DNA of 64,000 bases from Blastocatellia bacterium UBA7656 (GTDB taxonomy: Bacteria; Acidobacteriota; Blastocatellia; UBA7656). Under the pieces are notes generated by a model. The model made no database searches, had not been told where the DNA came from, and worked only from the letters and a program-made list of their open reading frames with translations. The DNA is taken from assembly GCA_002483445.1 (NCBI GenBank), contig DLHY01000152.1, forward strand, positions 4,021-68,020. The letters are read 5' to 3'. Below, one piece after another: positions 30,343-33,820 of the stretch (position 1 is its first letter; the number at the start of each line of letters is the position of its first letter). Made by a program: the position numbers and the translations under genes.

Positions 30343-32153
30343 CAGCCCATCTCCTCTATGATCTTTTTCAACTCATCAGGCATCGGAGGAATTTCATCGC
30401 GGCGCATCTGCATACTTCCGTCAGCGCCTTTCCACACGATGATGTTGACTTTGCCGAGTTCCGCGTCTTTGTTCGGATAGTCGTCGCGAAACTGAGCGCC
30501 GCGGCTTTCTTTCCGCTCGATTGCTGCGCGGGTAACAGCTTCCGAAACTGTGAGCAGATTGCTCAGGTCGAGCGCGGTATGCCAGCCCGGATTGTACTCG
30601 CGGTTGCCGGTCACGCTGACCTGACGGGTTCTCTGCCACAGGTCGTCGAAGCTTTCGAGCGCGCGAGTGAGTTCATCTTCTTTTCGCACTATCCCGACAA
30701 GCTCCTGCATCATTTCTTTCAGGTCGTCCTGAATCTTGTAAGGGTTTCCCGAATCACTGCGCTCGAAGGGTTCGAGAGCCGCTCGCGCAGCTTCATCGAC
30801 CTGGTCGTTGTTAATATCGCCAGCAGAATGTTCTTTAGCGAATTGAGCGGCGAATTCACCGGCCCTTTTGCCGAACACCAGAAGGTCTGAAAGCGAGTTG
30901 CCGCCCAATCGATTCGCTCCGTTGATGCCTGCCGCGCATTCACCGGCGGCGAAGAGGCCAGCGACTTTAGACATCTCGGTTTCGGCATCCACTCGGATTC
31001 CGCCCATCGCGTAATGCGTGGTCGGCCCGACTTCCATCGGCTGCGCGGTGATATCGATGTCGGCCAGTTGTTTGAACTGATGATACATGCTCGGAAGCTT
31101 TCGACGTATATGCTCGGCGGCGTTTGGGAGTTTTTCTTTTATCCACGCGATGTCGAGATAGACTCCTCCGTGTTCGCTGCCTCGCCCTTCCTTGACTTCG
31201 CGGACGATGCAGCGGGCGACGTGATCGCGCGTCAAAAGTTCCGGCGGGCGGCGAGCCGCTTTATCGCCCTGCGTGTAGCGCCAGCCTTCTTCTTCGTTAT
31301 CGGCGGTCTGGCTTTTGTAATTATCAGGGATGTCGCCGAACATAAAGCGACGGTTTTCCTTGTTGAGGAGAACGCCGCCTTCGCCTCTGACGCCTTCGGT
31401 CACGAGTATGCCGCGAACGCTCGGCGGCCAGACCATCCCTGTCGGATGGAATTGAACGAACTCCATGTCGATCAGTTCTGCGCCCGCGTGATAGGCAAGC
31501 GCGTGTCCGTCGCCTGTGTATTCCCAACTGTTGCTCGTCACGCGATACGCGCGCCCGATGCCGCCTGTGGCCAAGACGATGGCTTTTGCTTTGAACAATC
31601 GGAAGCGTCCCCGCTCGCGCTCATAAGCGAAAGCGCCTGTGACGCGATCTCCATCTTTGAGCAGAGTCACGACGGTCGTTTCCATGTAGACTTCTATGCC
31701 CTGATGGATTCCGTGATCCTGAAGCGTGCGGATCAACTCCAATCCTGTCCGGTCTCCCACGTGCGCGAGGCGCGGGTACTTATGGCCTCCGAAGTTTCGC
31801 TGAAGTATTCGGCCATCTCCTGTGCGGTCGAATACTGCGCCCCAGGCTTCGAGCTCGCGCACGCGGTCGGGCGCTTCTTTGGCGTGAAGTTCGGCCATGC
31901 GCCAGTTGTTGACATACTGCCCGCCGCGCATCGTGTCCGAAAAATGCACCTTCCAGTTGTCACGCTCATCGACATTGGCAAGCGCGGCTGCTATTCCGCC
32001 TTCGGCCATAACGGTGTGCGCTTTTCCGAGGAGCGATTTGCATACAAGTCCGACCGATACGCCTGCTGCGGAAGCTTCTATCGCGGCTCTCAGTCCTGCC
32101 CCGCCCGCGCCTATCACCAGCACGTCTTTCTCGAATGTCTCGTATTCAGCCAT
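30342..32153 (-). CDS. sdhA: Succinate dehydrogenase/fumarate reductase flavoprotein subunit.
   Basis: Start ATG at 32153 (MAEYETFEKDVLVIGAGGAGLRAAIEA FAD-binding motif; GGAG SD). Covalent-FAD region RGGQY, catalytic HPTG and MGGIRVD motifs. The 791-aa ORF-track version carries a spurious 187-aa N-terminal extension. Confidence 0.9.
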   Translation of the reverse strand: MAEYETFEKDVLVIGAGGAGLRAAIEASAAGVSVGLVCKSLLGKAHTVMAEGGIAAALANVDERDNWKVHFSDTMRGGQYVNNWRMAELHAKEAPDRVRELEAWGAVFDRTGDGRILQRNFGGHKYPRLAHVGDRTGLELIRTLQDHGIHQGIEVYMETTVVTLLKDGDRVTGAFAYERERGRFRLFKAKAIVLATGGIGRAYRVTSNSWEYTGDGHALAYHAGAELIDMEFVQFHPTGMVWPPSVRGILVTEGVRGEGGVLLNKENRRFMFGDIPDNYKSQTADNEEEGWRYTQGDKAARRPPELLTRDHVARCIVREVKEGRGSEHGGVYLDIAWIKEKLPNAAEHIRRKLPSMYHQFKQLADIDITAQPMEVGPTTHYAMGGIRVDAETEMSKVAGLFAAGECAAGINGANRLGGNSLSDLLVFGKRAGEFAAQFAKEHSAGDINNDQVDEAARAALEPFERSDSGNPYKIQDDLKEMMQELVGIVRKEDELTRALESFDDLWQRTRQVSVTGNREYNPGWHTALDLSNLLTVSEAVTRAAIERKESRGAQFRDDYPNKDAELGKVNIIVWKGADGSMQMRRDEIPPMPDELKKIIEEMG

Positions 32154-32953
32154 CAGAGGATTCTCCAGTCTGTCCAGATTCCTGATGAGCAAAGCCTGAT
32201 GTAGATGTCGGAAAAGGCCACCCAGAACAGGCTCATCCAGGCCCACAGCATGTGCCGACGATTGAGGGCGCTGGCGCAGATGTAAGCTCCCTGGCAAATT
32301 GGAGCTTTTGACATCTGATCGATCCGGCCTCCGATGAGATGGCGCAGCGAGTGACAACTGAAGGTATAACCGCCCAGCAGAGTCACGTTGACGGCCAAAA
32401 CAAGAGTGCCTACGCCGATGCCGAATGAAGTGTTGCCCGAAGAGTCTGAAAACCACAGCGCATTCCACACGTCGTAGGCGAGGATGACGATAAACACGAG
32501 CGCGAGGTAAAGAAAGTAGCGATGAATATTTTGAAGTATGAGCGGGAACCGTCTCTCGCCGCGGTAAGCTTTTCTCGGCTCGCCCACTGTGCAGGCGGGC
32601 GGGTCTGCCCAGAACGATTTGTAATAAGCGCCGCGATAGTAATAGCAGGTCAGACGGAATCCGCCCGGCGCCCAGAGTATCAGCAAGGCAGGCGAGAAGG
32701 GCAGCCACAGGGGCCACCAGCCCGGTTTCGGCCCGAACCAGCTATGAACCGAATCGCCGAAGATTTCCGGCGAGTAAAGCGGCGACAGATATGGGCCGAA
32801 ATGGTAATGCCCGTTTTGCAACGCCGCCCATGTTGAATAGACGATGAATGCAGACAGGCACAAAAAAACTACGAGAGGCTGCAACCACCACGCGCCGTAG
32901 CGCATGGTCTGGCCGAAGCCGCGTCGCTTCAGGGTGACATTTGTAGAAGCCAT
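32153..32953 (-). CDS. sdhC: Succinate dehydrogenase cytochrome b subunit (b558-type, 5-6 TM).
   Basis: Polytopic membrane protein directly upstream of and overlapping sdhA; conserved His residues in TM helices (HYHFGPY, CHSLRHLIGG). Confidence 0.7.
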   Translation of the reverse strand: MASTNVTLKRRGFGQTMRYGAWWLQPLVVFLCLSAFIVYSTWAALQNGHYHFGPYLSPLYSPEIFGDSVHSWFGPKPGWWPLWLPFSPALLILWAPGGFRLTCYYYRGAYYKSFWADPPACTVGEPRKAYRGERRFPLILQNIHRYFLYLALVFIVILAYDVWNALWFSDSSGNTSFGIGVGTLVLAVNVTLLGGYTFSCHSLRHLIGGRIDQMSKAPICQGAYICASALNRRHMLWAWMSLFWVAFSDIYIRLCSSGIWTDWRIL

Positions 32954-33192
32954 GAGAGTGTAGGTGGAACCTCCGAATCACAAATTGCGAATTGCGACAT
33001 AAAAGAAAAATGATTGCGTTGGTTTCTGTATGAATAAAACCATGGAGGTTCAATCTCATCATGACTTGGCCGAACGTTTATCATGCCCGTTGATTTCGAG
33101 TCAAGACAGGTGAGGCTTTAATCGCATTTCGGCAACGGTCAAACTAGAGCCATTTAATTTTCAGAGGCAGGATCAGAATAGCCCGCAGATGA

Positions 33193-33258
33193 CGCGGATC
33201 AGGCGGATTTACGCTGATCTGATCCGTGTTCGTCCGCCAAATCCGCTTGATCCGCGTT
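33193..33258. repeat. 19-bp inverted repeat (ACGCGGATCAGGCGGATTT / AAATCCGCTTGATCCGCGT) around a 28-bp spacer, directly downstream of the truncated retropepsin-like ORF.
   Basis: Read directly; one mismatch between arms. Confidence 0.5.
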
Positions 33259-33477
33259 CTATTTCCGAAGATTAAATGACCCTACGGTCAATTCGAAAAC
33301 CTCACAACCGATAACATCTATGTTAAGGCGGTCAATGATTTTTCGAGGTAATACAATCTGACCGTTGAAGCCCGTGTCGATCAGGCATTCGATCACTTCG
33401 CTGCCGACAAGTCGCAGAGGAAGGTATGCTTCGGAAGAAGCGGACACTCTACCCAGTTCGCAGGCCATGTCCGCCAA
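33259..33477 (-). CDS. Retropepsin-like (clan AA) aspartic protease domain protein, apparently C-terminally truncated (72 aa).
   Basis: YLPLRLVGSEVIECLIDTGFNGQIVLP matches the hydrophobic-strand+DTG active-site pattern of bacterial single-domain aspartyl proteases; only ~40 aa follow the DTG versus ~70 expected. Confidence 0.45.
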   Translation of the reverse strand: MADMACELGRVSASSEAYLPLRLVGSEVIECLIDTGFNGQIVLPRKIIDRLNIDVIGCEVFELTVGSFNLRK

Positions 33478-33745
33478 TCGTATGCGCCGATTTCTGTCCT
33501 ATTCGGATGAGGTAGAAAAGTTTGTCAGGCATTGCCGAGCGCGCGGAGATGAGGACTTGCGCTCCCGTGTCGCCGAGGAAGTAACTGCCCGTCGCAGGCT
33601 CGATGGCAACAAAATGTCCGGCGTGACGAGATTCAAGGTCAACCTTCAATCGCTCTTCGTAAATGGGCTGGCCCTGCTCGGCAAGGTCGTTTTTCGATAT
33701 GGCTTCGGTTTTGAGTGACCCGCTCACAAAGCACTCTCCCGACAA
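33449..33745 (-). CDS. Small hypothetical protein with an FVAI...G...P...RIG pattern (DUF5678-like, tentative), overlapping the aspartic-protease ORF by 29 nt in another frame.
   Basis: HFVAIEPATGSYFLGDTGAQVLISARSAMPDKLFYLIRIG. Gene-pair arrangement noted; identity is inferred from memory of the family pattern only. Confidence 0.35.
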   Translation of the reverse strand: MSGECFVSGSLKTEAISKNDLAEQGQPIYEERLKVDLESRHAGHFVAIEPATGSYFLGDTGAQVLISARSAMPDKLFYLIRIGQKSAHTIGGHGLRTG

Positions 33746-33760
33746 ACACTGACAAGCAAC

Positions 33761-33820
33761 AAGTGATGAGTGACAAGTTGAACAGACTCGTCACTCATCA
33801 CTTTGAACTCATCACTTCTT
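33761..33820. repeat. Hairpin (AAGTGATGAGTGAC / GTCACTCATCACTT, 14-bp stem) plus CATCACT repeats, at the stop of the downstream secreted-protein gene.
   Basis: aagtgatgagtgacaagttgaacagactcgtcactcatcactt read directly. Confidence 0.55.

Follow-up and report, generated by a model that had tools for sequence, protein, structure and literature searches.

Probable decay of a conserved two-gene cassette, encoding a DUF5678-like protein and a retropepsin-type protease, at a palindromic repeat element in a Blastocatellia genome

A pair of small overlapping genes, here called A and B, lies beside a palindromic repeat element in a stretch of 64,000 nucleotides from Blastocatellia bacterium UBA7656 (assembly GCA_002483445.1, contig DLHY01000152.1, positions 4,021 to 68,020 of the forward strand), the whole of which is referred to as the window and supplies all coordinates given without a locus name. 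Both genes are read from the minus strand. Their longest open reading frames (ORFs), each opening with TTG, span 33449-33745 (98 aa) and 33259-33477 (72 aa). As described in a first-pass annotation of the bare sequence, these ORFs, extended to their first possible starts, overlap by 29 nt in different frames, the upstream one containing an FVAI motif (RFVAIEP) and LGDTGA and the downstream one LIDTGFNG. Gene A is likely to start at the GTG at 33727, given the GGAGAG found 6 nt upstream, the ATG at the equivalent position of a syntenic relative (locus L002, see below) and the length of 92 aa of its database homologues; it would thus occupy 33449..33727 on the minus strand (92 aa, TAG stop), with RFVAIEP and YFLGDT as its hallmark motifs. 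The likely start of gene B is the ATG at 33468, since the resulting product is identical to the database protein P0031, placing B at 33259..33468 on the minus strand with a predicted length of 69 aa. Using these starts, the overlap amounts to 20 nt, which is the modal value among intact homologous pairs (25/42) and suggests that the translation of B may be coupled to that of A.

Gene A aligns over its entire length with 28 homologues (83-100 aa), among which RFVAIEP and YFLGDT are nearly invariant, and when 1.84 billion representative proteins were searched by profile, its family was found to comprise 2,533 clusters at E<=1e-3 (702 at E<=1e-10). The window protein itself has no Pfam match, and no match to DUF5678 (PF18929, a family of uncharacterised small proteins) even at E<=10, whereas 11 out of 29 close homologues match the latter weakly and below threshold (best E=9e-4) and one distant member of the A family, P0062, just attains its gathering score with 23.5 against 23.2 bits. 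The two families have the core ‘(R)FVAI...G...’ in common, the A family being the longer of the two and having an additional helix at the N-terminus and a tail at the C-terminus. Judged by these profile scores, gene A is a distant relative of DUF5678 and not a member by the curated test; a literature search for DUF5678 found nothing on the family. The AlphaFold2 (AF2) model of gene A, with a predicted local distance difference test score (pLDDT) of 80 and a core above 90, displays an alpha-beta-beta-alpha-beta fold. Comparison with the syntenic relatives gave ratios of nonsynonymous to synonymous substitution rates (dN/dS) of 0.16-0.39, and gene A is shown to be intact and under purifying selection.

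The proposal that A might be the remnant of a frameshifted or duplicated protease gene, which the first-pass annotation had drawn from the string GDTGA, was rejected, A being full length by comparison with 29 homologues, belonging to a large family of its own and having a fold unrelated to that of retropepsins. The residue following its ‘DT’ is G solely in the subgroup of the window, the 83-aa subgroup carrying GDTF and the cyanobacterial members missing the DT. Because this G is not conserved, the likeness of GDTGA to a protease active site would appear to be coincidental. Relatives of the A domain were also observed at the C-terminus of P-loop kinases of the AAA_17/AAA_18 type, in P0040 (271 aa) and P0053 (372 aa), and a subgroup of relatives devoid of the LGDT motif sits directly upstream of tyrosine-recombinase genes (kinase-fusion and recombinase loci L181, L184/L185, L187/L189, and L193), which suggests that this small domain pairs with several partner types on mobile DNA.

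Gene B is a remnant of a clan AA aspartic protease of the TIGR03698 type (retropepsin-like), with the catalytic LIDTGFNG retained. The profile searches, for which the first-pass annotation had named clan AA and DUF5678, gave no DUF5678 match for A and only a partial clan AA match for B, whose product scored 25.6 bits against NCBIfam TIGR03698 (clan_AA_DTGF; cut-off 57.35) over profile positions 17-44 of 107. In another Blastocatellia genome (L005), the gene of 120 aa located after an A homologue covers positions 14-106 with 52.2 bits (E=6e-14), as does, over the same positions, the B gene of the syntenic locus L001 once its frameshift is repaired; intact B relatives altogether score 47-52 bits, near the cut-off yet below it. 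Other homologues are 119-143 aa long and bear the Joint Genome Institute (JGI) name ‘clan AA aspartic protease’, those of the Prokaryotic Genome Annotation Pipeline (PGAP) being alike, and D31-T32-G33-F34 is invariant in an alignment of 15 homologues. When the intact L005 protein was searched against the window with tblastn, its residues 1-63 aligned to 33468-33277 (minus strand, E=2e-19), ending past the strand after the DTG loop and a short helix, and its residues 64-120 found no match anywhere in the 64 kb. The three-frame translation downstream of B, advised in the first-pass annotation for recovering the missing C-terminal region, likewise did not contain it. The truncation claimed there is therefore borne out by the end of homology at residue 63, its size having been underestimated: the shortfall is not ~30 aa; it comes to ~51 residues in length (69 against a modal 120 aa) and to 57 homologous residues.

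The structural consequence can be read from the AF2 model of an intact homologue, P0183 (pLDDT 91.4), which matches APRc of Rickettsia conorii (5c9f; E=3e-6, TM 0.68) and also the protease of human immunodeficiency virus 1 (HIV-1). Mapped onto this model, the window protein is without six of the twelve fold elements (E65-77, E80-89, E94-96, H98-101, E105-109, and E114-118), having lost the conserved (I/L)GT segment that precedes a short C-terminal helix together with the C-terminal strands. Retropepsins (family A2) act as homodimers, the C-terminal strands building the dimer interface by which the active site of two aspartates is assembled. Lacking half of the barrel and the strands of this interface, the 69-aa product is predicted to be unable to form the dimer and to be inactive as a protease, and B of the window is shown by the alignments to be what we would class as a pseudogene. 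No intact close orthologue was found in the clade of the window among 5.8 billion database proteins, the best intact match being 56% identical. Intact B resembles the known clan AA proteins (TIGR03698, APRc, and RloA/RimB of Pseudomonas) in being a single domain of ~120 aa with D-T-G-F; it differs from APRc and RloA in having neither signal peptide nor membrane anchor, and from the characterised retropepsin-like members in the tight coupling of its gene to an upstream DUF5678-like gene.

The palindromic element was first recognised by a 19-nt inverted repeat with 1 mismatch (left arm 33192..33210, right arm 33239..33257), unique in the window, where 0.02 chance matches would be expected. The surrounding 151 nt fold with -63.2 kcal/mol on the minus strand (z = -6.1 against shuffled sequences). 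A nhmmer profile of the copies in other genomes matches 33173..33265 with 87 bits, so that the 19-nt repeat forms the core of an element of ~93 nt, each arm of which consists of four GCGGAT-type subrepeats of ~9-10 nt (the left 19-nt arm covering subrepeats 2-3) and which is bounded by AATAG...CTATT. The inverted repeat reported in the first-pass annotation is hence real, the position assigned to it, just beyond the stop of B, being inexact, as it is the core of a larger element whose end supplies that stop. In the family alignment, 88% of the cells of a 38-bp in-register hairpin are paired, compared with 30-40% with shifted partner columns, and 13 pairs are changed on both sides, values that none of 500 shuffles reached; by this measure of covariation, the stem of the element is maintained by compensatory changes.

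With an 18-mer taken from the repeat arms, a scan over one genome per GTDB species retrieved 117 stretches, many of them probably by chance; for approximately half, the similarity can be extended to 80-100 nt, the identity being 71-85%. The profile made from the extended copies detected 72 copies in 55 fetched loci, at up to 4 per 8 kb (for example L106:3066-3163, L026:7150-7232, L115:3366-3468, L055:736-828, and three in L025), and exactly one in the window. Full-length copies occur in Blastocatellia, Pyrinomonadales, other Acidobacteriota, Chloroflexota, Bacteroidota, Verrucomicrobiota, and one metagenome-assembled genome of Methanobacteriota, with shorter matches in Planctomycetota, amounting overall to relatives in at least five bacterial phyla. 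The copies are intergenic, typically situated 0-30 nt past the 3' ends of genes, and the terminal TAG is often the stop codon of the gene concerned. Rfam contains no entry matching the element (region searched at E<=10, whole window at gathering thresholds), the output consisting of spurious miRNA-like matches to another hairpin at 33761-33803 alone, and a literature search for palindromic repeats in Acidobacteria returned nothing bearing on it; the element family is undescribed, multi-phylum, and absent from Rfam. It is akin to repetitive extragenic palindromes (REP), the bacterial interspersed mosaic elements (BIME), and the miniature inverted-repeat transposable elements (MITE) (e.g., Di Nocera et al. 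2013, PMC3733652) in being dispersed, intergenic, hairpin-forming, and located at gene 3' ends. Unlike REPs, which measure 20-40 bp, it is ~93 nt long with its four GCGGAT-type subrepeats per arm, and most copies are without the terminal GTAG/CGTC tag of REPs, ending in ATAG instead. MITEs are recognised by terminal inverted repeats between copies of a duplicated target site, and for the element no such duplication was established.

The history of the locus was traced through syntenic loci found via close homologues of A, in which the gene order runs from an M20 peptidase or sensor kinase through a gene of 232-237 aa, a conserved hairpin, A, and B to sdhC and sdhA. The comparison proposed in the first-pass annotation, with an orthologous locus free of the inverted repeat, is provided by L001 (GCA_040755335.1), which is collinear with the window on both sides, has an intact A and no element, and retains the complete 3' half of a full-length B, the latter being disabled by a 5-nt deletion and a stop at codon 57. 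In L002, A is intact and B has suffered a change of its ATG to ACG, a TAA at codon 12, and a cut after ~codon 48 by a different element, a MITE-like insert of 220 nt (L002:3483-3702) that contains internal hairpins and is bounded by terminal inverted repeats of 32 nt (97% complementary). The start loss and the codon-12 TAA were seen in three independent assemblies (L002, L003, and L004), the insert in L002 alone, the contigs of L003 and L004 ending before its position. L208, the closest to the window at ~90% DNA identity, has lost A entirely and keeps codons ~6-36 of B, a fragment devoid of its own start that terminates at the catalytic Asp. Thus, no intact B exists among the syntenic genomes, each of the four (the window, with an intact A and a B cut at ~codon 63, included) bearing a different lesion. 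A search of metagenome contigs for further syntenic relatives by exact 23-mer gave zero matches. The shared 5' part of B nonetheless yields dN/dS values of 0.05-0.12 among the window, L001, and L002 (binomial p<4e-5), from which it follows that purifying selection acted on B during the greater part of the period after the lineages split and that the lesions are recent and independent.

Alignment with these loci also delimits what was exchanged in the window. Having left the homologous segment (33277..33468), the frame of B reads on the minus strand through 15 nt of non-homologous sequence encoding FNLRK and stops at the TAG at 33259-33261, this tail (33259..33276) ending within the terminal AATAG of the element. 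Some 200 nt of the L001 arrangement, comprising B codons ~64-120 and perhaps part of the DNA further downstream, are swapped for ~100-125 nt of new DNA; the maximal stretch without a counterpart in the syntenic loci, made up of the element and short flanks, is 33151..33276, of which the right edge may lie anywhere between 33150 and 33172. An inverted repeat, outer and imperfect, is present at 33145-33165 / 33264-33284, and the replaced segment is flanked by the 8-nt direct repeat TTGACCGT (33284-33291 and 33135-33142). A simple transposition with TTGACCGT as an 8-bp target-site duplication was considered and not adopted: in the uninterrupted locus the two flanks do not abut one another, and the second copy of the repeat belongs to the ancestral intergenic DNA. 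The suggestion of the first-pass annotation that B was truncated by the insertion of a small palindromic element accordingly holds with one amendment: L001, devoid of the element, keeps the 3' half of B, and the insertion was not clean, a deletion having been added to it.

Beyond the syntenic loci, relatives of A were fetched from 80 metagenome loci, of which 64 with at least 380 nt downstream of A were scored. B stands directly downstream of A in 53 of these 64 loci, being intact in 42 with a modal length of 120 aa and frameshifted or partly deleted beside an intact A in 11; in the remaining 11 there is no B. Neighbouring genes are unrelated between the cassette loci. The pair also occurs on plasmids of Nostoc and Tolypothrix, annotated as ‘hypothetical protein’ with ‘clan AA aspartic protease’ or ‘retroviral-like aspartic protease family protein’; an intact copy (L210, Nostoc sp. 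MS1 plasmid pNSMS101, 250823-251460) lies between pglZ and pglX of a bacteriophage exclusion (BREX-1) system, and another copy adjoins a tyrosine recombinase (integrase). Going by this recurrence, A and B are a conserved cassette that travels across unrelated contexts and is apparently mobile. The palindromic element is not a part of it, given that no copy was found in 273 kb of other A loci. The state of affairs that the first-pass annotation had set against its own truncation idea, namely both ORFs full length and the repeat present at intact loci, was encountered only with respect to A, which is full length; B is not, and the repeat is absent from the other loci.

Several further observations were made on decayed copies of B. 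Four independent frameshifts in B homologues fall at codons 55-58 (L001:3425-3440, L132:~1745-1760, L153:~2810-2830, and L198:~1130-1145), near the break in the window at ~codon 63 and without a homopolymer, with a rough post hoc p of ~0.01 on 8 events. In two unrelated metagenome loci (L157:~1400-1480 and L148:~720-1000), a dead B is interrupted by an ATCCG-type repeat and a GC-rich palindrome, and dead B genes seem to collect palindromic or repeat elements.

We consider it highly probable (about 85%) that the locus is a decaying copy of this conserved two-gene cassette, with B truncated at the repeat element. The intact cassette consists of A, a small alpha/beta protein, and B, a retropepsin-type protease of ~120 aa whose frame starts inside the end of A; in the window, the ~93-nt element with its short flanks has replaced B codons ~64-120, leaving the terminal TAG of the element to end the frame. 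As to why B decays, B may be the partner that is costly or toxic, with A neutralising or regulating it, in which case B would be inactivated first, A persisting as an orphan until it is lost too. The likeness to type II toxin-antitoxin modules lies in two small, overlapping, co-oriented genes in scattered and unrelated contexts, which include plasmids, a defence island and the vicinity of integrases, with a downstream B that is often inactivated while the upstream A stays intact, reminiscent of the decay of such modules to orphan antitoxins. The ‘two-gene selfish module’ of the first-pass annotation is upheld in its two-gene architecture (53 of the 64 loci, and the plasmids), its selfish or toxin-antitoxin nature being inferred. 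That the cassette is a selfish or toxin-antitoxin-like module is a tentative and rather unlikely proposal, and no more probable is its extended form, that the DUF5678-like and retropepsin pair represents an unrecognised toxin-antitoxin-like or defence-associated module with a homodimeric aspartic protease as effector and A as neutraliser. We know of no toxin activity of a retropepsin-like protease.

A number of points weigh against the above account or its bolder part. The 80 metagenome loci were chosen via A, which biases the sample towards a B that dies first, since a live B beside a dead A would have escaped it. In view of the gene lengths, finding B dead and A intact in 3/3 syntenic genomes does not reach significance (~0.18), and in L208 A is gone too. 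A possesses none of the DNA-binding folds of type II antitoxins (ribbon-helix-helix (RHH), helix-turn-helix (HTH), AbrB, or Phd). PADLOC and PHROGs, searched with both proteins, gave nothing for A and weak generic protease matches for B, and a literature search (DUF5678, TIGR03698, retropepsin with antitoxin) found nothing linking the pair to toxicity, addiction, or defence. At the junction itself, the replacement is not a clean insertion, and insertion followed by deletion or a single rearrangement would both fit.

Decay without any toxicity should also be given consideration. In such a case, A and B would form an ordinary housekeeping or accessory operon, the protease being accompanied by its substrate, chaperone, or regulator (cf. 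RimB in rimABK), which became dispensable in the clade and is eroding neutrally, the element having landed in DNA no longer under constraint. The characterised bacterial retropepsin-like enzymes RloA and RimB do play physiological rather than toxic roles, the literature searched gave no positive sign of toxicity, the cassette is being lost in all four syntenic genomes, including A in L208, and the dead B copies elsewhere hold several unrelated palindromic repeats, as expected of neutral DNA. However, the unrelated contexts, plasmids, BREX island, and integrase neighbours are atypical of a housekeeping operon, the frequency of A loci with a dead or absent B (one third) is far above that of ordinary pseudogenes, and the dN/dS of 0.05-0.12 in the B remnant means that four near-simultaneous neutral losses would require a shared change of regime. 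We therefore hold neutral erosion to be possible, if somewhat unlikely.

The opposite possibility, that the truncated B is alive, would assign a function to its N-terminal half of ~60 residues, comprising the DTG and an AbrB/MazE-like hairpin ‘VLPRKIIDRL’, as a partner binding A or as a dimerising half-barrel. It is this very segment that shows purifying selection (dN/dS 0.05-0.12), the four frameshifts at codons 55-58 and the window break at ~63 leave the same N-terminal half, and the segment is the sole part of the cassette kept in L208; there is, in addition, a Pfam match to MazE_antitoxin over window B residues 38-54. Against this, the MazE match, with 13.9 bits, falls far short of its threshold of 24.7, the clustered frameshifts were noted post hoc on 8 events, the segment in L002, L003, and L004 is without its ATG and interrupted by the in-frame TAA at codon 12, and the L208 fragment ends at the catalytic Asp with no own start. 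A search for stand-alone B homologues of ~60 aa found no family, merely the protein of the window itself and one 46-aa fragment, and a functional half-protein is in our opinion improbable. An assembly artefact, by which two nearby hairpin copies were collapsed or two strains joined and the 3' half of B thus removed in silico, is suspected less still. The window does derive from a short-read contig of a biofilm metagenome (ERZ922866, k127), a further point counting against truncation in the organism itself, and a repeat sits at its breakpoint. The element is nevertheless flanked on either side by the same syntenic locus, in the order and orientation of L001, L002, and L208, the 64 kb contain a single copy of the element, and a collapse would still need a copy inside B, so that B would be interrupted anyway; moreover, three related genomes carry independent and different lesions, two of those in one genome being reproduced in three assemblies. 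Such an artefact is accordingly very improbable.

Regarded as a decaying copy of the cassette, the locus itself is an ordinary pseudogene of little weight for the organism, its value being that of a natural experiment in which one cassette is caught at four stages of decay in four syntenic genomes, with a protease strongly constrained until recently. The cassette family extends to thousands of clusters in several phyla, including copies on plasmids and one in a defence island, and no function has been published for it. Should B prove to act as a toxin or as an immune effector that A restrains, an aspartic protease would join the known effectors of toxin-antitoxin and defence systems; the ordered decay, with a dead B beside an intact A in three genomes and the loss of both in a fourth, the third of A loci with a dead or missing B, and the presence on plasmids and in a BREX island would then constitute the signature of an addiction module that loses its toxin before its antitoxin. 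The hairpin element, for its part, offers an example of dispersed palindromic repeats that truncate genes and donate stop codons.

Two neighbouring features were encountered in the course of the syntenic comparison. Upstream of sdhC (32153-32953), the sequence CTTGACTCGAAATCAACGGGCATGATAAAC at 33090-33125 (minus strand) is near-invariant across the four syntenic genomes; it was not called by a consensus promoter scan and looks like a candidate promoter of the -35/-10 type for the succinate dehydrogenase operon. Between the upstream gene of 235 aa and gene A, an 18-bp hairpin (33761..33803, minus strand) resembles a putative terminator for the former gene, being kept in all four syntenic genomes and partly duplicated in L208.

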